32,000 bases of DNA from Candidatus Electronema halotolerans (GCA_942493095.1 OW818675.1:1290001-1322000); one strand, 5' to 3'. Positions 2,253-26,047 are shown, counted from the stretch's first letter. Numbers and translations: made by a program. The notes: generated by a model from the letters alone, not told the origin.

Positions 2253-3425
2253 ATGAATTTGATAATTTATCTACAGCACCCCTTAATCCTGACCGGAATT
2301 GGGCTGTTTTTTGCAGCATTGGCAGTCAAGGTGATATTCCTCGGCAAGGACAAGTCTTCTGGAACCGCAAGGAAGGCTATGCATCTTCTGCTGGTGCTTG
2401 CTATGCTGGCAACAGTGAGCGGTGCTCTCCTCAGTTGGCAAGGTGCTTCAATAGATGCCGTCGTTGAAATTTCGCCCACAGCAGTAATGAAGCCTGCCCA
2501 AACTGCCCAGCAAGCCTTTGAGAGCGGTCTGGAAGCTGAAAAGAAAATTGATTACAAGAACGCTTTGCTTCACTACAGCAAGGCACTGGAACTGGTGCCA
2601 GACAAACCGGAATATTTGCTTGCTGCGGGAAGGACAGATAGAAAGTTCGGCAAGTTTATCCAAGCGCAGGATTGGTTGGAGCGGCTCTTGCAACTGCGCG
2701 AGGCAGAAGGAAAGGATACTGCTGCCTTTGCTGAAGCGCAGAACGAATTGGCTCAACTCTATTATGATCAGGGCAAATATGCCAAAGCAGAATCTCTTTA
2801 TCAAAGTTCCTTGGAAATCAGAAAGGTGGTGTTTGGTGACGATGCTCCTGAAGTCGCGCAAAGCTTGAACAATCTCGCAGCAGCGTATCGTGAGCAGGGA
2901 AAATACGAGGCAGCAGAATCATTATGCGAACGCGCTTTGGCAATCCAAGAGCAGACTCTTGGTAAGGAAAATCCAGCAGTAGCTGAAACGCTCAACAATT
3001 TGGCCCTGCTGTATCGAGTGCAAAGAAAATATAAGGAAGCGGAACCGCTGCATCAGCGCGCTCTGAAAATCAGAGAGCAGACTTTTGGCAAGGATTATCC
3101 GGCAGTAGCTGAAACCCTTAACAATCTTGGTTCGCTGTATTATCAGCAAGGACGCTATAACGAGGCGGAACCGCTGTATCAGCGCGCTCTGAAAATCAGG
3201 GAGCAATTCCTTGGGAAAGAGCATCCGGCTGTGGCTGAAATCCTTAGCAATCTTGCCTTGATCTACAAAGCGCAAAGAAAATACACAGAGGCAGAGTCCC
3301 TGTATCAGCGCAGCATAGCTATTCTCACAGCAGCCTTCCCTGATGGGCATCTCAATATTACCCGCTATCAGGCAAATTACGATGAACTGAAGCGTAAGAT
3401 GGCTGAACAAGAACAGCAGCAGTAA
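2253..3425 (+). CDS. Membrane-anchored tetratricopeptide-repeat protein (TPR_12 / kinesin-light-chain-type repeats)
   Basis: A GGAGGAG RBS lies upstream of the ATG. The N-terminus has two hydrophobic segments. About six 42-aa repeats follow, of the form AxxLNNLAxLYxxQGKYxEAEPLYQRALKIREQxLGKxHPxVA. Confidence 0.85.
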   Translation: MNLIIYLQHPLILTGIGLFFAALAVKVIFLGKDKSSGTARKAMHLLLVLAMLATVSGALLSWQGASIDAVVEISPTAVMKPAQTAQQAFESGLEAEKKIDYKNALLHYSKALELVPDKPEYLLAAGRTDRKFGKFIQAQDWLERLLQLREAEGKDTAAFAEAQNELAQLYYDQGKYAKAESLYQSSLEIRKVVFGDDAPEVAQSLNNLAAAYREQGKYEAAESLCERALAIQEQTLGKENPAVAETLNNLALLYRVQRKYKEAEPLHQRALKIREQTFGKDYPAVAETLNNLGSLYYQQGRYNEAEPLYQRALKIREQFLGKEHPAVAEILSNLALIYKAQRKYTEAESLYQRSIAILTAAFPDGHLNITRYQANYDELKRKMAEQEQQQ

Positions 3426-4052: not shown

Positions 4053-6680
4053 ATGCAGGCGGAGAAAATCATCGGCTTTTCCCTGAAAAAGCCCAAGGCG
4101 GTGATCGCGGCCATGCTTGCGGCCACTTTGATCATCGGGGCCTTCATTGTCCGGGTCCACGTTGACACAGACCCGGAAAACATGCTCTCTGAGGACGAGC
4201 ATGTCCGCGTTTTTCATGCCCAGACCAAAAAGGAATTTGGTCTGCACGACGTGGTGGTGCTGGGCGTGGTCAACGAGGAGAACCCGGACGGTGTGTTCAA
4301 CCCGGCAACCCTGAAAAAGGTTCATGCCCTGAGCAAGTTCGCAGGCACCTTGGCTGACCCGGACGACCCGACCCGGAAAGTGGTGGCGCGGGACATCATT
4401 GCCCCGGACAATGTGGACAACATTATTCAGGCCGGGCTGGGGCAGGTGCGCTTTGAGTGGCTGATGCAGGAACCGCCGACCACCCGTGAAGGTGCCCTGA
4501 AAGTCCGGGATGCGGCCTTGGATAATCCGCTCCTCAAAGGGACAATGGTTTCTGAGGACGGCAAAGCCTTGGCCATTTATCTGCCCATCACCAAGAAGGA
4601 TTTCGCCCATGCCACTGCCGAGCGGCTGCGGGAGAAAATCCAGGAGCTGGGGCCTGCGAACGGTGACGAGTTCCATATCACCGGCCTGCCTGTGGCGGAA
4701 GACACCTTTGGCAAGGAGATGTTTGTCCAGATGGCGATTTCCGCGCCTATGGCCATGCTGATGATCTTCCTGCTCATGTACTATTTCTTCCGCAATTTGC
4801 AGCTCATCATTGCGCCGATGATCTTGGCGGGCTGCGCTGTGGTCATCACGATGGGGCTGCTGATCGGCACCGGCCACACCCTGCACATCATGAGTTCGAT
4901 GATTCCGATCTTCATCATGCCGATTGCAGTGGTCGATTCGGTGCATATTCTCTCGGAATTCTTTGACCTCTACCAGAAAAAGAAGAACCGGCGCGAGACC
5001 TTGATCTATGTGATGGGCGACCTGTTCTGGCCCATGCTCTTCACCTCGCTGACCTCTTCAGTCGGCTTCATCTCCCTGGCATGGACACCGATTCCGCCGG
5101 TGCGGGCCTTTGGCATTTTTGTCGGCATCGGCATCTTGCTGGCTTGGGTGATGACCATCCTCTTCATCCCAGCCTATGTCATGCTCATCCCGGAGAAAAA
5201 GCTGGAGAGCTTTGGCGCGTCCGCTGATCATGCGGATCACAAAAATTCGCCGCTCAACCGGCATCTGCGCTGGGTCGGCAAAACTTCGATCAGCAAGCCG
5301 TGGGTAGTGATCGGCGTGAACCTTGGCATCATGTTCATCGGCGTGATCGGCATGTTCCTGATTCAGGTCAATGACAACCCGGTCAAATGGTTCAAGAAGA
5401 CGCACGAGGTGCGGGTGGCGGACAAAGTTTTGAATCGGCATTTCGGCGGCACATACGAAGCCTATCTGGTGCTGTCCGGCAATGCCAAGGAGCTGACTGC
5501 GCCTGAGACTGTCGCTTTGCTGGAAAAAGAAGTACAATCAATCCCAAGCGCCAACCCGGCCCTGCAAGAGACTGCGCTGAACAGCATCAAGGCCGAAGCT
5601 GAGGGCCTGCAAACCGGCACGGAATTGTTGGACAGCCTGAATCAGGCATGGAACAGTCAGTTGGACAATGTGGCGGCGGATGACGATGCAGGCTATGAGT
5701 TCTGGACTGCGGCAATCAACACGATTGGCAAAGTGGGCGCCAGCAAGGAAGTCTTCAAACGGCCTGAGCTGCTGCGCTGGATTGCTGATTTTCAGGCGCA
5801 TATAGCCAAGCAGGGCGATGTGGGCAAGTCGAACAGCATCAGCGACGTGGTCAAGAAGGTGCATCAGGAGCTGTACGAGGGCAATCCGCAGCATTTCACC
5901 ATCCCGGACACAGTCAATGCAGTGGCGGAAACCCTGATTTCCTTTCAGAACAGTCACAAGCCGGATGATCTCTGGCATTTGGTCACGCCAGACTACACCA
6001 AGGCCAATCTCTGGATTCAGCTACGCAGCGGCGACAACAAGGACATGGAGCGGGTGGTTGAGGATGTGGAGCAGTATTTTGCCAGCAATCCGCCGCCGGT
6101 GAAACTGACGCACGAATGGGCGGGGCTGACCTATATCAATGTGGTCTGGCAGAACAAGATGGTTGTCGGCATGATGGAGTCTTTCCTGTCCAGTTTTGTG
6201 CTGGTCTTCCTGATGATGGCCTTCCTGTTCCGCTCGCCGACTTGGGGCCTGCTGGCGATGATTCCGTTGACTTTCACCATTGGTTTCATCTATGGTTTTA
6301 TTGGTCTGATCGGCAAGGATTACGACATGCCAGTGGCGGTGCTCTCCTCGCTGGCCTTGGGCTTGGCGGTTGACTTTGCCATTCATTTCCTCCAGCGCAC
6401 CCGGATGACAATGGCCAAGACTGGCGACTGGAACGCGACGATCACGGATATGTTTGACGAGCCAGCGCGGGCGATTTTCCGCAATATCATTGTGATTGCG
6501 GTGGGATTCACGCCGCTGCTGCTCGCGCCGCTGGTCCCGTATCAGACAGTGGGCGTGTTCTTGGCCACGATCATGTTCTACTCCGGCCTTGCGACCCTGT
6601 GGATTCTTCCTGCATTGCTGACGGTGATGAAGGGCTGGGTCTTTAAGCGGGAGTTGAAGGCGTTTGCGGAGAAGGGTTGA
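4053..6680 (+). CDS. RND-superfamily exporter, MMPL/COG1033 type (two 6-TM bundles with large periplasmic loops)
   Basis: 875 aa with an AAGGAGG RBS. It has two hydrophobic blocks (about aa 225-385 and 700-860) separated by soluble loops. This architecture is typical of MMPL/HpnN-like exporters. Confidence 0.9.
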   Translation: MQAEKIIGFSLKKPKAVIAAMLAATLIIGAFIVRVHVDTDPENMLSEDEHVRVFHAQTKKEFGLHDVVVLGVVNEENPDGVFNPATLKKVHALSKFAGTLADPDDPTRKVVARDIIAPDNVDNIIQAGLGQVRFEWLMQEPPTTREGALKVRDAALDNPLLKGTMVSEDGKALAIYLPITKKDFAHATAERLREKIQELGPANGDEFHITGLPVAEDTFGKEMFVQMAISAPMAMLMIFLLMYYFFRNLQLIIAPMILAGCAVVITMGLLIGTGHTLHIMSSMIPIFIMPIAVVDSVHILSEFFDLYQKKKNRRETLIYVMGDLFWPMLFTSLTSSVGFISLAWTPIPPVRAFGIFVGIGILLAWVMTILFIPAYVMLIPEKKLESFGASADHADHKNSPLNRHLRWVGKTSISKPWVVIGVNLGIMFIGVIGMFLIQVNDNPVKWFKKTHEVRVADKVLNRHFGGTYEAYLVLSGNAKELTAPETVALLEKEVQSIPSANPALQETALNSIKAEAEGLQTGTELLDSLNQAWNSQLDNVAADDDAGYEFWTAAINTIGKVGASKEVFKRPELLRWIADFQAHIAKQGDVGKSNSISDVVKKVHQELYEGNPQHFTIPDTVNAVAETLISFQNSHKPDDLWHLVTPDYTKANLWIQLRSGDNKDMERVVEDVEQYFASNPPPVKLTHEWAGLTYINVVWQNKMVVGMMESFLSSFVLVFLMMAFLFRSPTWGLLAMIPLTFTIGFIYGFIGLIGKDYDMPVAVLSSLALGLAVDFAIHFLQRTRMTMAKTGDWNATITDMFDEPARAIFRNIIVIAVGFTPLLLAPLVPYQTVGVFLATIMFYSGLATLWILPALLTVMKGWVFKRELKAFAEKG

Positions 6681-6774
6681 GAGGTGGACTTTCTCGGCAA
6701 CATTCCGGTAACGGGGTGTTGCCGGAGAGGAAACTCTTGCTCAATTAATACGTATTGCTGAAATTGAACATATT

Positions 6775-7229
6775 ATGATTCTTGAATTTTATAAATCACA
6801 TCTTTCTATCACCGAGTTAGCACAAACTGAACTTCCAGAGTTTACTGTGTTGACTGGAGTGAACGGCTCTGGAAAAAGTCATCTGCTATCTGCCATTGCA
6901 AGCCAGAGTATACGGATTCAAGGAATGGAGCAGCCAAGAATTGTCCTGTTTAACTATGCAACATTCAAGTTGGATAATGAACCTGTTTTAAACTCGCATC
7001 AACTTTTTTCTGAAAAAGAGGCAGCTTGGCAATTTTGTCAACAGGTTAAAAAAAACGCTTGGCGTGCTCAATTTGGTGAAGATTATGAGACTATTAGACA
7101 TGAATGTATTAATTCCAACTTGCCCTTCTGGGAAGTGACAGACTCAAGAATAGAACCATACAGGCAAAATCTTAAAAATTGGTACAGTCAGGCGAAACTA
7201 AAGAATACCCAGCAAGCTCAAGGCATCTA
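6775..7229 (+). pseudogene. N-terminal fragment of an ABC-type ATPase/Toprim (OLD-family-like) gene, interrupted by IS630
   Basis: Walker A is present as LTGVNGSGKSHLL. The frame is broken at the IS630 left end, and the track ORF 6775..7269 simply runs into IS sequence. It rejoins in frame with 8277..9504 when 7230-8276 is removed. Confidence 0.8.
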
Positions 7230-8274
7230 TAGCGGTTTCGTATTGAACAGATATCAAACCCAGCAATGACGGAAAAACGATTTGATTGATTTTGACTTAA
7301 CCGTTTTCAGAGATATATCATAAGCTTCCATCAGCTCACGCTCTGTTCTCGGCTTCAATTTTCTTATAGTGTTTTTCATTACTGACCAGCAGTATTCAAT
7401 AGGGTTCAGTTCAGGACGATAAGGAGGGAGGAAAATGATCTTCGCTCCTGTACTTCTGATCAAAGCGAGAGCTTCTTTGTTTTTATGAGGACTGGCATTG
7501 TCAAGAACGACTGTCTTGCTGCTGTCAAGATATTTCAAAAGATAATTTTTTATATAGAAATAAAAGACATCTCCTGTCATGGTGCCTTTAAATTTCATGC
7601 ACTTCAATATTTTTCCAAACTTTACAGCTCCTATCATGCTTATTCTTTTCCCTTTACCTGAAGGTCTTTTTGAAAAAGCTCTTGTTCCTTTTCTTGATCT
7701 TGCAAATTTTCTCGACATGTTCAAACAGCATCCTGTCTCATCAATAAAGATGAAATTCTTTTTGTCAGCCTCGAGCAGGCCTGCAAGGTAATTAACTGTC
7801 TTTGCTATATTTTCCTCTTTATACGCCGCCGGATCGCGGAAAGTTTTTTTTTCCGGCTGATTTTCAGTCTGGCGAGAGTTTCGCACAGCGTGGAAGGTGC
7901 TATTTTTAAATTGAATTTCTCGTATAAGCGATCACACATCTCTTCAAGCGTAAGATCGTTCTCGTCATCAATCATGCTGGTCAGAAAAGGCATATGAACT
8001 TCCTTGATTTTCGGAGGATTTCCGCCTTTATGAGGCTTCGGCTCAAGCGTCCCCTCAGTCTTCCATCTTTTTACAAGACTTTGAACAAATTTATAGGAAA
8101 CGTCAAGCAAATCTGCAGTTCTTCTCAATGATTTCTGTTTTTCATAAACAGACAAGACTTTCTTTCTGAAATCAATAGAATAAATCATGGCAGACCTCCG
8201 TGTGTAAAAAAATGGAAAAAACAGACAAGTCAAGTTTAATCTTTTTCTGATAACCATACAACCTGAAACCGCTA
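7230..8274 (-). mobile_element. IS630/Tc1-mariner-family insertion sequence (1045 bp) flanked by a TA target duplication
   Basis: Terminal inverted repeats are TAGCGGTTTC (7230-7239) and GAAACCGCTA (8265-8274), extendable to about 26 bp with mismatches. TA lies at 7228-7229 and at 8275-8276. The element encodes a DDE transposase. Confidence 0.85.
7254..8188 (-). CDS. IS630-family DDE transposase in two overlapping frames (orfA 8188->7805, orfB 7886->7254) joined by a -1 shift at an A9 run
   Basis: A GGAGG RBS precedes the ATG at 8186-8188. The N-terminal HTH region reads MIYSIDFRKKVLSVYEKQKS.... The catalytic triad context is IFIDETG / VLDNASPH / PELNPIEYCW. The A9 tract (T9 on the + strand, 7844-7852) lies inside the frame-overlap window. 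Confidence 0.85.
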
Positions 8275-8276
8275 TA

Positions 8277-9504
8277 TGCAATGGCAAGAAAGCTGCCGTA
8301 TGGAATAGATGATATTGAGCATGATGATTTTTTTTCTCTGTATAAGCCATTCATTGTCAAGGACGATTTTTTACCGAGTCAACTTGGACGTGTTTTTTGG
8401 GATTACTATGTAACATATCAACAAAATCAGCTACACGAATACCAAAACGAAAAGTACAATAAGAATTATCCGGTTTTATCAGAAGACGAATTCATTAGGA
8501 AGCACGGTGAAAAACCTTGGGATATAGTTAACCTGATATTGGAAAAATTAAATACAGTAACATATAGGGTAAACTCACCAGAAGGTGAAGATATTTTTGG
8601 AAATTTCAAGCTAAAAATATACCATACCGAAAAGAAAGAACTTCAGATAGATTTCAGCAATCTTTCATCCGGCGAACAGGTGCTTATGGCCTTGGTCGCC
8701 TCTGTTTATAAAGCATCTGCCGACAATCTTTTTCCAGATGTATTGCTGCTTGACGAAGTGGACGCATCACTGCATCCGTCTATGATGAAAAATATGCTTG
8801 AAGTCATAGAGGATGTATTTCTTCGTCAGTCCGTCAAAGTCATTCTTGTCACACATTCTCCTACCACCATTGCCTTAGCACCGGAAGATTCTGTTCATAT
8901 TATGAATCCAAGCGGTGCCCAGCGAATTATCAAGACAACGAGACAGGAGGCTTTGGCCATCCTGACTCAAGGTTATGCTACTCTTGATGAAGGACTAAAG
9001 CTGTTTGATGAGATCGGCCATGAAAAACTGACCATTATCACAGAAGGCTATAATACTTCTTTTTTGCGTAAAGCTCTGGAACTTAATCGGATAAACGGGG
9101 TGAACATTTTGGATGACTTGGAATCCATCACTGGAGATTCTCAACTCAGAACATTGTTTGATTTCTTTACAAAAATACAGCATGATAACAAAGTGCTCTT
9201 TGTGTGGGACTGCGATGTTTGGCCTAAGTACAATAAACTCACCGAGTCTAATAACACCTATCCTTTTATCTTTGAACGGAATAACGAGAATAAACTGACA
9301 GAAAATGGTATCGAAAATCTATTTTCAGAAAGTCTATTCTCAGGCATGATCACATGTACAACATCAAGTCTTGGTAAAAAACGAGAAGCTTTTGATAGCA
9401 ACAGAAAGCGAGACTTTGAGAAACTCATTATGGAGCATAACGATCCTGAAGATTTCAAGCTGTTCGCTCCGTTTGTAACGAAGGTTCAGGAGCTTATTTC
9501 ATAA
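8277..9504 (+). pseudogene. C-terminal fragment of the same ABC-type ATPase/Toprim gene
   Basis: It carries an ABC-signature-like LSSGEQ, Walker B LLLDEVDASLHP and H-loop VILVTHSP. A Toprim/DUF4435-like module follows, with TIITEGYN (Glu) and VLFVWDCDV (DxD). Confidence 0.8.
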
Positions 9505-9597
9505 CAGAAGCAGCTTCCCAACCTTGTAAGTTGGGACAAGGAACGTCCCGATAAAACCGGAAGATGGATTCAGAGGGACAACTTACGGGACAAACGC

Positions 9598-9975
9598 ACG
9601 GCCCAATTCAACAGACGAACCGCAGCCTCCTTGAACCGCAGCTCTCCGTTCGTTGCAAGAACGTCTTCGCTTAAAAAGAGGAGCAGCCCTTTCTTGAAAA
9701 GCAGTCGTGAGTTTTTAAAGAGCACCTTCCAGCTTTTTAAGTTGGGCCGTCTTCTCAAGAGGTGGACAAGCCCTCTTTAAAAGGGGAGAGATCAACTTTA
9801 CAAAAGAAGCAGTCCGTTCGTTGAGAGCAGCCTTCCTCTTTTTAAGAGAGGAAGCGCGTTCGTTAAGAGGAGCTGTCCGAGAAAGAAATGCAACTCTCGT
9901 TTCAAAAAAAGAACAGTCCCTTTTTTCGAGAGGACTTGAGCGCGCAAAAGAAGGAAGCAGCGCAGACAAAAAAGA
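9598..9975. repeat. About 18 tandem degenerate 21-bp repeats with a T-tract/A-tract pseudo-palindromic core
   Basis: I aligned the region by hand in 21-nt rows from 9598. Column 1 is A in 16/18 rows, column 20 is G in 17/18 rows, columns 10-14 are T-rich and columns 15-19 are A-rich. TTCGTT recurs at 9649, 9817 and 9859, spacings of 168 and 42 nt (8x21 and 2x21). Confidence 0.85.
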
Positions 9976-9982
9976 GAATTAA

Positions 9983-10229
9983 ATGAAATGCGCAATCTGT
10001 GTCGGCGGAAGAACTGAAAAAAAACTTTTCAACCGTGCTGCTGGAAAAAGATGAAATGATATTGCTTTTTAAGCAGGTTCCTTCAGAGATTTGTGAGAAT
10101 TGCGGAGAAGAATATATTTCATCTGAAGTGAACAGAATGCTGCTCCGCCATGCAAGAGAAGAGCTGAATCGAAATGTCTCTCTTGAGATGCTGAATTTCT
10201 CTCCCAGAGAATCTATGAAATCAGCTTGA
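9983..10229 (+). pseudogene. YgiT-type zinc-ribbon (MqsA N-terminal-like) antitoxin-like gene, frameshifted in an A8 tract
   Basis: The ATG at 9983 gives MKCAICVGGRTEKK in frame 2. The rest (NFSTVLLEKDEMILLFKQVPSEICENCGEEY...) is in frame 3. The switch point is the A8 run at 10017-10024. Removing one A gives an 81-aa CxxC...CxxC protein. Confidence 0.6.
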
Positions 10230-10257
10230 CAGAATATAGGGAAATTTTCGTGATGCT

Positions 10258-10509
10258 ATGAACTGCCCGAAAGTGCGCTCAGTCAAGGCGGCTGACAATC
10301 ACATCCTGATCGTTGAGTTTGATAATAACAAAAAGAGACAGTATGACGTAAGTCTGTTGCTGGACAAGGAGATGTTTGCGCCATTAAAAAATACCGCTCT
10401 GTTCAAGGCCGTCCGAGTGGAGCAGGGAGGCTGGGCTGTTGCTTGGAATGATGACATCGACCTCAGCGAATTTGAGCTGTGGAGCAAAGGAAAAGAAGTA
10501 GTCTGCTGA
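10258..10509 (+). CDS. DUF2442-domain protein
   Basis: The 83-aa sequence VKAADNHILIVEFDNNKKRQYDVSLLLDKEMFAPLKNTALFKAVRVEQGGWAVAWNDDIDLSEFELW fits the DUF2442 pattern. Confidence 0.75.
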   Translation: MNCPKVRSVKAADNHILIVEFDNNKKRQYDVSLLLDKEMFAPLKNTALFKAVRVEQGGWAVAWNDDIDLSEFELWSKGKEVVC

Positions 10510-10724
10510 ACAGATTAAAGGCCATGACATGTTTTGAAGATTTGACCGGCTTTCAGGAAACAGGAGCAGAATAGGTTCGCCGGAATTTTATTGTCGAAGA
10601 AACAAAGCTGATCTTCAAAGCACGATTGACAGTTATCTTTATCCGTTTAAAGACGGAAGAAAGATTGTCAGTATTTTGAAATCGTTTATTGACTACAGCA
10701 AATAGCTTTAGCAAAGAGGTGATC

Positions 10725-10958
10725 ATGGCACTTAATCAAGAAGTGAAAAATCTTTCCTGCACAGGTTCAGTCTTGAGCAATGTGCAGATGGAGCTTATCA
10801 AGTTGTATGCAACAAACTTGAATAACAATGAGCTGATGGAGCTGAAAAGCATCTTGGCTGATCATTTCAGTCGAAAAGCAATTGATGAAGCTGACAAAAT
10901 ATGGATGCAGAAGGATATGTCAACACAGACAATGGACGACTGGCTGAATGAAGAATAA
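10725..10958 (+). CDS. Putative antitoxin partner of the downstream PIN toxin
   Basis: This 77-aa ORF has an AGAGG RBS before the ATG at 10725. It overlaps the PIN gene start by 11 nt. The family was not recognised. Confidence 0.55.
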   Translation: MALNQEVKNLSCTGSVLSNVQMELIKLYATNLNNNELMELKSILADHFSRKAIDEADKIWMQKDMSTQTMDDWLNEE

Positions 10959-11370
10959 GCTGCGCCTTGTCATTGACACAAATGTGCTGCTGGTCTCAAT
11001 ATCCAGCAAATCACAGTATCATTGGCTGTTTCAGGCTTTGCTGAATCAGGAGTTTGAACTGGCCTTCACAACGGAAATACTCGAAGAATACGAAGAGATT
11101 ATTGCATCAAAATACTCTGTTTCTGTTGCTCGCAACGTTATACGGACGATACTGCTGCTTCCGAATGCAATCAGAACAGTTGTTTACTACAATTGGAATC
11201 TGATTTCCATCGATGAAGATGACAACAAATTTTCAGACTGCGCTGTGTCCGCAAATGCGCATGCGATAGTCACGCACGACAGACACTTTGATATGCTGAA
11301 GGATATTTCGTTCCCAACTGTGAACGTGGTTACGATCCATGAATTGAAAAAACTGTTGGACAAGGATTGA
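10948..11370 (+). CDS. PIN-domain ribonuclease toxin (TIGR00305-like PIN family)
   Basis: The N-terminal LVIDTNVLLVSISS supplies the first acidic PIN residue, and ILEEYEEI and VTHDRHF motifs follow. The 140-aa size and the overlap with the upstream small ORF also fit. Confidence 0.85.
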   Translation: MKNKLRLVIDTNVLLVSISSKSQYHWLFQALLNQEFELAFTTEILEEYEEIIASKYSVSVARNVIRTILLLPNAIRTVVYYNWNLISIDEDDNKFSDCAVSANAHAIVTHDRHFDMLKDISFPTVNVVTIHELKKLLDKD

Positions 11371-11415
11371 TCAACACTCATTTCCTTATTATCAAAACAA
11401 AAGGAGCATATTGTC

Positions 11416-24440: not shown

Positions 24441-25160
24441 ATGAACAAGAATGGCATAGAGAAAGTCTATAATCAATATTCGGCTGTGTATGATAAAATA
24501 TTTGGCCGGGTCTATGAGAATGGACGCAATGAAGCAGTCAAGATGATCTCGCTAAATGGCCAAGAACAAATCTTGGAGATCGGAGTCGGCACCGGCATCA
24601 GCCTGACTAAATATCCAAAAAATGTTGGCATCGTCGGCATTGATCTGTCTAAAGACATGCTGGAAAAAGCCAAAGACCGGGTGAATAAATACGGACTGAA
24701 TAATGTTGAGCTGAAAATAGAAAATGCGGAGGAGATGTCCTTTGCCGAGAATCAGTTTGACAAGGTCATCATCATGTATGTCCTTTCTGTTACGCCCAAT
24801 CCTGAGCGGCTCATCGACAAGGCCTTCAGTGTCTGCAAGGAGGGCGGTGAAGTTCTTATCGTCAATCATTTCAGCAAGCGACGTGCTCTGCGCAAATTTG
24901 CCGACTATGACTTTCTTCAGCGGGTGGAGCGCAGGCTCGGCTTCCGGGTCTATTTCCCTATGGACAAGTATATTCAGCACATCAACCGGCTGGGCTATTC
25001 CTTAGTTGAGGTGAAAAAAGTCAACTACGGTTTGTCGCGCATCATCCGGGTCAGGAAGGAGCGGACAGGCGCGCAGCCGCATTTTGATGACTGCGCGATG
25101 CCGATCATGCCGCCGCCCGCCTCGGTTGTTGACCGCCCGCTCAACGGCCAGAGAATCTGA
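24441..25160 (+). CDS. Class I SAM-dependent methyltransferase (PmtA/UbiE-like)
   Basis: Motif I is ILEIGVGTGISL. It is followed by GIDLSKDMLEKAKDRV and FDKVIIMYVLSVTPNPERL. The gene body is AT-rich and the last ~100 nt are GC-rich. Confidence 0.8.
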   Translation: MNKNGIEKVYNQYSAVYDKIFGRVYENGRNEAVKMISLNGQEQILEIGVGTGISLTKYPKNVGIVGIDLSKDMLEKAKDRVNKYGLNNVELKIENAEEMSFAENQFDKVIIMYVLSVTPNPERLIDKAFSVCKEGGEVLIVNHFSKRRALRKFADYDFLQRVERRLGFRVYFPMDKYIQHINRLGYSLVEVKKVNYGLSRIIRVRKERTGAQPHFDDCAMPIMPPPASVVDRPLNGQRI

Positions 25161-25181: not shown

Positions 25182-25298
25182 CGAAGCTGTCATGATACGT
25201 ATAACGAATCTGTCATTATAGGTGTCATGACTTTGTCGTTATAGGTATAACGAAGCTGTCGTGATACCTATCATGAATTTGCCGTGATATGTATCATG
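25182..25298. repeat. Five 23-bp tandem units, each containing a 16-bp imperfect palindrome CRTKATA-NN-TATMAYG
   Basis: The palindromes start at 25191, 25214, 25237, 25260 and 25283, exactly 23 bp apart. Unit 3, CGTTATA-GG-TATAACG, is a perfect 7-2-7 dyad. The spacers are AAKCTGT-like. Confidence 0.9.
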
Positions 25299-25372
25299 AC
25301 GCAAAAAGGCTTGGCATGTTTGACGCGGGCAGATTGGAGCAGAGAGCAGACGGACAGAGCATCTGAGTACAC

Positions 25373-26047
25373 ATGAATACAGTCATTGTCATCCCAGTTT
25401 ATAACGAGGCCAAGGTCATCGGCGAGGTGATTGAGGGCGTGCGGGCGCAGGGCTTTGAGCATGTTGTGGTCGTCGATGACGGCAGCAGGGATGACAGCTT
25501 TGTGGTCGCATCCGCTCACGATGCCCTGACTCTGCGGCTGAAGATCAACCGGGGCAAGGGCGCGGCAGTGAAGACCGGCATCATGGCCGCCAATCTTCTT
25601 GATGCGGATGTTGTCGTGACTATGGACGGCGACGGACAGCACGATCCGGCGGATATCCGTCCCCTGATCACCCCGATTCTGGCAGGCCGGAGCGATGTGG
25701 TGCTTGGCTCGCGCCTGCTCAAACGGGAGGCGATGCCCTTCAAGAAGGTCATTGCCAACCGCATCGGCAATGTGCTGACGTGGCTTTTCTACGGCCTGCT
25801 GGTCTCAGACAGTCAGTCCGGCTTCCGGGCCTATTCTCGTTACGCCGCCTTGATCATTGACACTAAAGCGGATAAATACGAATATGACAGCAAAGTCATC
25901 CGGGAGATCAAGAACAACCGGCTGCGCTTCACCGAAGTGCCGGTGCATACCCGCTACACCGAATACGCGAGCACAAAAAAGACCAAGCAGGGCTTGATCA
26001 ACGGGCTGATCACCCTGTACCGGATGATCTGGAAGCTGATTGCCTGA
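25373..26047 (+). CDS. Family 2 glycosyltransferase (polyprenyl-phosphate sugar transferase, GtrB/DPM1-like)
   Basis: The sequence VIVIPVYNEAKVIGEVI...VVVVDDGSRD...TMDGDGQHDP shows the GT-A fold DxD-type motifs. Size is 224 aa. Confidence 0.88.
   Translation: MNTVIVIPVYNEAKVIGEVIEGVRAQGFEHVVVVDDGSRDDSFVVASAHDALTLRLKINRGKGAAVKTGIMAANLLDADVVVTMDGDGQHDPADIRPLITPILAGRSDVVLGSRLLKREAMPFKKVIANRIGNVLTWLFYGLLVSDSQSGFRAYSRYAALIIDTKADKYEYDSKVIREIKNNRLRFTEVPVHTRYTEYASTKKTKQGLINGLITLYRMIWKLIA

Follow-up and report, generated by a model that had tools for sequence, protein, structure and literature searches.

An IS630-family insertion splits the gene of a putative single-protein ABC ATPase–Toprim nuclease in Candidatus Electronema halotolerans

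An IS630-family element lies within a single gene

The DNA analysed here is a stretch of 32,000 nt from Candidatus Electronema halotolerans (referred to as the window, within which all coordinates are counted), and it contains an insertion sequence (IS) of the IS630 family, 1045 bp in length (7230–8274), inside a plus-strand gene. What remains of this gene appears as two open reading frames (ORFs), 6775..7269 (164 aa) and 8281..9504 (407 aa), both on the plus strand and in frame 1, which an exact look-up identified as the hypothetical proteins CAK8716503.1 (164 aa) and CAK8716513.1 (407 aa) of a 3.2-Mb contig. The ends of the element form a perfect 10-bp inverted repeat, TAGCGGTTTC at 7230–7239 and its reverse complement GAAACCGCTA at 8265–8274, with a TA dinucleotide on each flank (7228–7229 and 8275–8276). 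The codon of Tyr152 is interrupted between its TA and its final T, and the initiator Met of the 407-aa ORF corresponds to residue 154. Deletion of 7230–8276 (1047 bp) joins the two parts in frame, ...QQAQGIY being followed by AMARKLPY..., which yields an ORF of 1683 nt or 560 aa. The ORF coordinates, inverted repeats, TA flanks, 1047-bp deletion and 560-aa ORF had all been given in an original prediction made from the sequence alone, and every one of them was verified on the window; the motifs that it had listed (GVNGSGKS, LSSGEQ, LLLDEVD, VTHSP, ITEGYN and WDCDV) are likewise all present. The features of the locus are the following:

6775..7229, plus strand: 5′ part of the split gene, codons 1–151 plus the TA of Tyr152; Walker A GVNGSGKS at 6856–6879; colinear with uninterrupted orthologues
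7228..7229, no strand: left copy of the TA target-site duplication; a single TA in the empty sites of the comparison loci L001–L004
7230..8274, minus strand: IS630-family insertion sequence, 1045 bp; inverted repeats, Pfam domains, a segment missing from the orthologues, a 1046-bp contig
7254..7886, minus strand: transposase orfB frame, DDE_3 catalytic part, −1 relative to orfA; DDE_3 at 7.7e-34
7805..8188, minus strand: transposase orfA, 127 aa, helix-turn-helix (HTH) DNA-binding part; HTH_32 at 1.5e-8, HTH_Tnp_IS630 at 4e-7
8275..8276, no strand: right copy of the TA target-site duplication; a single TA in the orthologous empty sites
8277..9504, plus strand: 3′ part of the split gene, from the last base of codon 152 to the stop; LSSGE at 8662–8676, LLLDEVD at 8743–8763, His345 at 8854–8856
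9019..9501, plus strand: C-terminal Toprim-like domain, residues ~400–560; E408 at 9043–9045, D463 at 9208–9210, D465 at 9214–9216, E498 at 9313–9315

The Pfam matches of the minus-strand transposase fall in two frames. Within the overlap of orfA and orfB there is a run of nine A (minus strand, 7852–7844; CGG AAA AAA AAA CTT), where a −1 shift would join the HTH and DDE parts into a conceptual transposase of 311 aa. By tblastn, this conceptual protein is 36–39% identical to cyanobacterial plasmid genes annotated as "IS630 family transposase". Most of these related plasmid copies were also matched in two pieces, which may point to programmed frameshifting or slippage in transcription; the two-frame layout thus seems to be a trait of the group and not a sign of decay. 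That the frameshift reflects decay or an error in sequencing the homopolymer is unlikely, given that an independent assembly is 100% identical and that the relatives are two-frame too.

Known traits of the IS630 family are insertion at TA, duplication of this dinucleotide and a cut-and-paste excision that proceeds by double-strand breaks (ISY100; PMC2170065). No exact match to the left end of the element was found in 185,579 representative genomes, and the element therefore appears to be new at the sequence level. No further copy was detected within the window, nor was a second insertion site recovered from public assembly contigs, which stop at the ends of the IS in the way that repeats usually interrupt an assembly. 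The G+C content is 38% in both the split gene and the element, versus 54% in the whole window.

The gene is uninterrupted in related genomes

Four loci were used for comparison, from GCA_026645415.1 (Candidatus Electronema sp. KV; L001), GCA_022766045.1 (L003), GCA_022765985.1 (L004) and Electrothrix AUS3 (L013). The first three share the same gene order, with an ArsR-type regulator, an 875-aa MMPL transporter, an uninterrupted 563-aa gene and an MqsA-like gene downstream, and in L013 the gene is uninterrupted across the junction and then truncated by the end of a 2.2-kb contig. When the window was aligned with these four loci by blastn, the alignment stopped at 7230 and resumed at 8275 with an overlap of 3 nt in the subject, which means that the empty site holds one TA. 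A 61-mer excised in silico differed from L001 by four substitutions and no insertion or deletion, the empty sites carrying a single TA, so that the search for this junction in related genomes proposed in the original prediction did recover uninterrupted alleles.

More than 100 homologues of the joined protein were found, of 558–577 aa, with 50–82% identity and 99–100% coverage. In an alignment of 45 sequences (44 homologues of ~561 aa), the junction falls within the gap-free block AQGIYSLAKKLPY; homologous loci thus encode full-length proteins across the junction and not two separate genes at this position. In addition, a 1046-bp contig from run ERR9670067 corresponds to window positions 7230..8275 with 100% identity, and contigs of ERR9669565 and ERR9670067 begin 26 nt inside the right IS end, continue through the TA and enter the 3′ part of the gene, with 100% and 99.99% identity, respectively. 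Contigs of two runs contain the right junction, which therefore did not arise as an artefact in assembling the source genome. Misplacement of an IS copy might have been suspected here, the source being a closed long-read metagenome-assembled genome of an uncultured cable bacterium, in whose genomes IS elements are numerous (PMC10030654); with the right-hand junction present in two independent public assemblies and a textbook TA duplication at the junctions, the chance of such an artefact is practically negligible.

Orthologous empty sites, homologues and independent assemblies agree, and the in-frame join is therefore a genuine former gene and not a coincidence. The splitting of one gene by an IS630 element, as originally proposed, is borne out by the HTH and DDE_3 domains, the TA duplication and the uninterrupted orthologues in four cable-bacterium genomes. 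The insertion appears to be recent, because both halves are open, no family-invariant residue has changed and other assembled copies of the IS are identical to this one. The gene is predicted to be inactivated in this genome, since the insertion cuts off the part with Walker A from the remainder of the protein, with the signature, Walker B, H-loop and nuclease part. Given that cable-bacterium genomes are IS-rich (PMC10030654), a recent, neutral or slightly deleterious IS hit is the simplest reading.

Two other possibilities would leave the locus functional. In the first, the protein would still function in two pieces or the 407-aa product would be active alone, for which it can be said that both ORFs are intact and that the ATG of the 407-aa ORF lies 5 nt past the IS end. 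However, this product lacks Walker A and the entire N-terminal lobe, the break falls within a predicted helix (residues 146–157) of an insert in the ATPase, and none of the checked homologues is split at the same position. A consensus scan revealed no promoter-like site at the right end of the IS that would drive the 407-aa ORF, the sole plus-strand promoter-like site within the IS (7292–7321) being ~1 kb upstream and the count within shuffle expectation, and no Shine-Dalgarno-like sequence is visible directly upstream of 8281. Along 6600–10000, promoter and terminator sites were no more numerous than in shuffled sequence. We consider an active split protein highly improbable.

In the second, which the original prediction had offered as an alternative, the IS would be a reversible switch, its precise excision in part of the population giving a phase-variable defence. 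Exact removal of the IS with one TA does restore the frame, the transposase frames are open in the two-frame layout typical of related IS630 elements, and the gene halves show no visible decay. Nevertheless, in-frame restoration follows from any clean insertion with a 2-bp duplication, and staggered double-strand breaks, by which the IS630 family excises, are not enough on their own for a precise resealing of the donor (PMC2170065). Moreover, only the interrupted junction was assembled in the two runs, no uninterrupted allele of this strain was found in public data, and the exact restored 560-aa protein was absent from a collection of 15 billion proteins in which both fragments are present. 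The switch found no support and is very unlikely.

The N-terminal part is an ABC-type ATPase

Residues 1 to ~387 of the restored protein correspond to an ABC-type ATPase according to Pfam (AAA_21 at 1e-20, AAA_15 at 4e-11, SMC_N at 7e-10). The profile searches suggested in the original prediction for the joined protein thus recovered the ABC ATPase that it had named, and returned no Pfam match to Toprim or DUF4435. Walker A (G28–S35), LSSGE (281–285), LLLDEVDAS (Walker B and D-loop, 308–316) and the H-loop His345 are invariant in the 45 aligned sequences. Residues ~74–245 (~170 residues) form a helical insert between the ATPase lobes, and it is in this insert that the IS falls.

A sequence profile search against the PDB matched the ATPase part only, with the retron Ec83 ATPase (1.7e-10), PtuA (7e-7) and AriA (0.007). 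The AlphaFold2 model of the whole protein (a pLDDT, or predicted local-distance-difference-test score, of 83.8) showed likenesses in Foldseek to the PtuA of retron Eco7/Ec78, SMC heads, Septu PtuA, Thermus OLD and AriA; that to Thermus scotoductus OLD (TsOLD, 6p74) had an E value of 4.7e-6 across 578 columns and a low template-modelling (TM) score of 0.22. The best PADLOC v2 matches (mad3, an AAA_21-like AriA model, ATPase-Toprim_I-B and PtuA; 1e-22 to 1e-17) also cover ATPase parts only. The match to the "AriA" model PDLC02980 is taken as generic because the length of this model equals that of Pfam AAA_21 (304 positions). No full-length PADLOC v2 model was found for the restored protein, and NCBIfam gave no match above its cut-offs.

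The C-terminal domain resembles the Toprim of retron Eco2

Among members whose C-terminal domain is 30–41% identical to that of the window, E408, G409, N411, D463, D465 and G496 are invariant, and E498, N490 and K529 are nearly so. The Toprim-type Glu and DxD pointed out in the original prediction are precisely among the residues kept invariant across the family. In the Toprim fold, arranged as beta-alpha-beta-alpha-beta, strand 1 is followed by the Glu and strand 3 by the DxD. The AlphaFold2 model of the isolated domain (pLDDT 88.3, predicted TM score 0.85) has the order beta-alpha-beta-alpha-beta, with the Glu after strand 1 (TIITE) and the DxD after strand 3 (LFVWDCD).

The PADLOC models of RT-Toprim_I-C (RT, reverse transcriptase) match the C-terminal domain in 20 of 31 members, the best at 3.4e-6. 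A close-family profile of the domain had no sequence match in the PDB; with a broader profile (A3), the top PDB match among 177,635 sequences was retron Ec67/Eco2 (9i2f, 9lm3), aligned in three colinear segments: TIitEGnN with 370-TIITEGKTD, vlfvwDcD with 451-PVIMVLDND, and IEnlfpe with 514-MEDLFPK. E408 is thereby placed on E374 of Eco2, and D463/D465 on D460/D462. These belong to the catalytic residues of Eco2 (E374, D378, D460 and D462), whose combined alanine substitution abolishes RNA/tRNA cleavage (PMC12916289). Two further alignments extend from the ATPase into this domain: that of the PADLOC AriAB model, which runs through residue 481, and that obtained with hhalign between the full-length family and an OLD-like protein, which runs on from the ABC signature as far as TIITEG / VVLCEG (probability 71%). 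The best meaningful Foldseek neighbour of the isolated domain was the PARIS AriB 8ux9_A (E 0.023, probability 0.84, TM 0.39).

Taking together the invariant Glu/DxD/Glu, the topology of the model, the RT-Toprim_I-C matches and the motif alignment with Eco2, the C-terminal domain is probably a divergent Toprim of the Eco2/AriB kind. By sequence, the retron type I-C (Eco2) Toprim seems to be its nearest relative, and AriB of PARIS a weaker one.

The family is widespread, and a sister subfamily has another C-terminus

A profile of the C-terminal domain recovered 552 clusters at 50% identity (307 of them at E ≤ 1e-10) among 1.84 billion representatives. Nearly all of the best 150 clusters have 550–640 aa and carry the domain C-terminally, and Walker A is present in 93 of 94 full-length cluster representatives. 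Relatives were detected in 202 genomes in a scan with one genome per species, the carriers being cable bacteria, Gamma-, Beta- and Alphaproteobacteria, Acidobacteria, many lineages of the candidate phyla radiation (CPR), Bacteroidota, Cyanobacteria, Spirochaetes, Planctomycetota and one Nitrosopumilus. This patchy spread and the low local GC point to horizontal transfer of the family. On plasmids, tblastn of the protein gave only matches to the ATPase part, with ~30% identity. The family is uncharacterised and unnamed, and current Pfam and PADLOC v2 models do not capture it as such.

A sister subfamily (L033, 2387–4333; L039, 2495–4348) carries an ATPase that is 52–58% identical up to residue ~390, followed by another C-terminus of ~230 aa with the motifs LFTEGITD, FDFDAEG and SIELLF. 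This C-terminus has no Pfam match, and its match to RT-Toprim_I-C is full-length and weak (1.3e-4). Since the sister subfamily keeps the ATPase and its different C-terminus also matches RT-Toprim_I-C, the conserved ATPase appears to have swapped one Toprim variant for another, in an effector-domain exchange.

The split gene lies in a variable low-GC islet

Around the split gene, the composition defines an islet with the following features:

~6700..11400, no strand: low-GC islet, 38–45% GC versus 54% in the window; composition and Pfam
9999–10229, in the islet: MqsA-like ORF; MqsA_antitoxin (weak) on the orthologue
10258–10509, in the islet: DUF2442 gene; Pfam
10689–11370, in the islet: 89-aa ORF and PIN_3 gene; Pfam

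The suggestion of an uncharacterised variant in a small islet next to toxin–antitoxin modules agrees with what was found, a stand-alone gene of an unnamed family in a low-GC islet with toxin–antitoxin-type genes. The spacer of ~490 bp that separates the split gene from the MqsA-like ORF (9505–9998) contains degenerate direct repeats of ~42 nt (9670–9710, 9796–9836 and 9838–9878) and several imperfect inverted repeats; it is ~83% conserved with the Electronema sp. KV locus and has no Rfam match. Comparison of the islet (6700–11400) with positions 10001–18800 of L003, between conserved MMPL and LolA-like genes, showed that the gene content differs among cable bacteria. The Electrothrix AW1 islet contains two Unstab_antitox genes, RNase_H, NYN and others, in place of the MqsA-like, DUF2442 and PIN_3 genes found here. 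The islet is a variable hotspot of accessory genes.

Nine homologous loci had no neighbour in common, and the idea of a conserved partner gene was rejected after comparing these nine contexts. Their neighbours include toxin–antitoxin pairs (PhdYeFM/ParE, PIN/FitA), an HNH gene, a polymorphic toxin with an immunity gene, BrxC/BrxD at ~8 kb upstream and, at one locus, an OLD-like_TOPRIM gene two genes downstream. This last arrangement is that of L008 (8692–10473, Burkholderiaceae), where a 593-aa AAA_15/OLD-like_TOPRIM gene follows two genes downstream of the homologue, so that two different ATPase–Toprim proteins are encoded at the same locus. The context fits a stand-alone accessory gene, a pattern described for class 1 OLD (PMC10568477), and is weak evidence for defence. 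Rfam and tRNA scans of the window returned nothing, and thus neither a retron non-coding RNA nor a tRNA-linked island border.

Repeats were also observed elsewhere in the window. At 1–1520, long tandem repeats (periods of 18 to 315 nt, GC ~65%) encode Gly-X-Y triplets of a collagen-like repeat protein, whose gene continues beyond the window start. Within the 390-aa ORF 2253–3425, positions 2948–3311 hold ~3 tandem repeats of 126 nt (42 codons), for which a tetratricopeptide kind is a guess from the period. Finally, five tandem 23-nt repeats (25183–25299, consensus GAATCTGTCGTGATACGTATCAT) lie between the ORFs 24441–25160 and 25373–26047 and may be a protein-binding array.

Proposed function of the restored protein

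Our preferred explanation is that a cut-and-paste IS630 insertion inactivated a single-gene ABC ATPase with a Toprim-like nuclease, a member of a widespread unnamed family with a role, by analogy, in defence of the abortive-infection type, and we hold this to be probable as a whole. A copy of the IS630-family element would have entered the TA within the codon of Tyr152 by cut-and-paste, duplicating it. In the intact protein, the helical insert may mediate oligomerisation and the ATPase would act as sensor and switch, ATP binding or hydrolysis gating the Toprim. Upon sensing of a phage cue, the Toprim would cut nucleic acid (RNA/tRNA or DNA) and growth would stop, so that one protein would provide phage defence of the abortive-infection type, like class 1 OLD and HEC-04. 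In a 2026 preprint, P2 OLD is described as an abortive tRNase (10.64898/2026.07.10.737580); because of this description and of the kinship of the domain to Eco2/AriB, an RNA/tRNA target is plausible, DNA being equally possible. The anti-phage role itself is inferred from architecture and context.

Several results speak against such a role or against a Toprim identity of the domain. The Pfam models Toprim, Toprim_Old, OLD-like_TOPRIM and DUF4435 were matched neither by the domain alone, nor by 31 members (E up to 10), nor by 10 divergent members. Foldseek searches of the isolated domain gave nothing significant in the PDB and no match in the viral structure library BFVD. The whole-sequence match to Eco2 is weak (E 0.17). 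With hhalign, the domain aligned at the level of noise with the Toprim of a Pfam-annotated OLD-like protein (probability 0.1%) and with that of HEC-04 (2%). Several homologous loci lie among housekeeping or metabolic genes, which makes the defence-island signal weak; tblastn of the protein detected no member of the family in phage genomes, and no source offers a family name beyond "AAA family ATPase".

These points leave room for a C-terminal alpha/beta domain that is not a nuclease, with Toprim-like motifs arisen by convergence, in a protein with a housekeeping or regulatory role. The missing Pfam Toprim-type match and the metabolic surroundings of several homologues would be in line with it, as would the fold search of the isolated domain, in which generic Rossmann-like folds appear at comparable scores. 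On the other hand, the residues that remain invariant across members of 30–40% identity are only the Toprim Glu and DxD, plus the second Glu; retron I-C Toprim models, which are independent hidden Markov models, match 20 of the 31 members; and the top PDB match aligns the conserved acidic residues with validated catalytic ones. The patchy spread, which reaches distant phyla with CPR and an archaeon among them, is, besides, typical of mobile accessory genes, as is the location in a low-GC islet. A non-nuclease role is unlikely in the light of these data.

Beyond inactivation of an ATPase–nuclease gene, a broader and more tentative proposal can be made. The restored gene could stand for an undescribed, widespread family in which a single protein serves as an immune nuclease, with at least 550 clusters at 50% identity that range from Proteobacteria to CPR and, among archaea, a Nitrosopumilus. 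An OLD/PARIS-like ABC ATPase would here control a Toprim of the retron Eco2 type, possibly an RNase or tRNase and not a DNase, and a sister subfamily would have swapped its effector. This proposal as a whole is possible, though we would not bet on it.

The knock-out of an accessory gene by an IS is routine, and the value of the locus lies in the restored gene, which supplies a clean full-length sequence of an unnamed ABC-ATPase–Toprim family. Through this gene, the nuclease domain of OLD-like proteins encoded by a single gene is connected with the Eco2 retron Toprim, an effector that cuts tRNA/RNA, and the family illustrates the apparent swapping of effector domains on a conserved ATPase. If the protein defends, a compact one-gene system would be added to the OLD/PARIS/HEC-04 group, which would help to answer whether stand-alone ATPase–Toprim proteins defend alone and whether their target is RNA or DNA. 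For cable bacteria, whose genomes are rich in IS, the locus offers a concrete case of accessory genes being worn down by IS activity.

How the element and the restored protein relate to known systems

The element shares with IS630/Tc1-mariner elements (e.g., IS630, ISY100) the combination of HTH and DDE_3 domains, the short inverted repeats, a size of ~1.0–1.2 kb, insertion at TA and TA duplication, and differs from them in its apparently new sequence and in a transposase in two frames that meet at the A9 run.

The restored protein resembles class 1 OLD proteins (P2 Old, Thermus scotoductus OLD and Vibrio cholerae OLD) in being encoded by a stand-alone gene with no conserved partner, in its size (~560–590 aa) and in its layout, with an N-terminal ABC ATPase carrying a helical insert and a C-terminal Toprim-type domain with Glu and DxD. 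In contrast to them, its own domain is smaller (~170 aa) and has EGxN instead of the usual EGxxD/E. The OLD-like label of the original prediction does not hold for this domain: membership in the OLD-type Toprims was rejected, because neither the 31 members nor the 10 divergent ones match Toprim_Old or OLD-like_TOPRIM and because of the hhalign probability of 0.1%.

With retrons of type I-C (Eco2/Ec67), the nearest detectable relatives of the nuclease domain, the motifs TIITEG, hhhhDxD and (I/M)E(N/D)LFP are shared. Eco2 has an RT, whereas the restored protein has no RT domain and the partner of its Toprim is an ABC ATPase; the inserts between motifs are longer in the Eco2 Toprim, and no Rfam family for a retron msr/msd non-coding RNA was found in the window.

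In PARIS (AriA plus AriB, or the fused AriAB), too, a small Toprim nuclease accompanies an ABC ATPase. The match to the PADLOC AriAB model (E 1.4e-16) is partial, as it covers residues 257–481 and model positions 288–511 of 694, one third of the model. The domain was not recognised as a DUF4435 nuclease of the AriB type, with no DUF4435 match in the 31 members and a non-significant Foldseek result (E 0.023, TM 0.39), and the fused-PARIS-like label is not supported by these tests.

HEC-04 (Hma-embedded candidate 04) is an E. coli ATPase–Toprim fusion of 490 aa whose phage defence, shown by experiment, needs the Walker A lysine and the E/D/D site (preprint 10.1101/2024.01.29.577857). It is likewise a single protein with an ABC ATPase followed by a Toprim at the C-terminal end, and its spacing from Glu to DxD is 56 residues versus 55 in the restored protein; it differs in its length and in having ~117 fewer residues from Walker A to the Toprim Glu. 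Alignment with the first 399 of the 490 HEC-04 residues by hhalign covered 75 columns of the ABC core, from signature to H-loop (probability 74%), and membership in HEC-04 was rejected on this same stretch, where the likeness is confined to the ABC core and the Toprim reaches a probability of 2%.

As for Septu PtuA and the retron I-A ATPase, the PtuA models match only residues ~255–385 of the restored protein, and the window contains no adjacent HNH gene that could be a PtuB-like partner. By analogy, the restored protein would work as an ATPase-nuclease of the OLD/PARIS/HEC-04 type, but by the tests run it is not a member of any of these systems.

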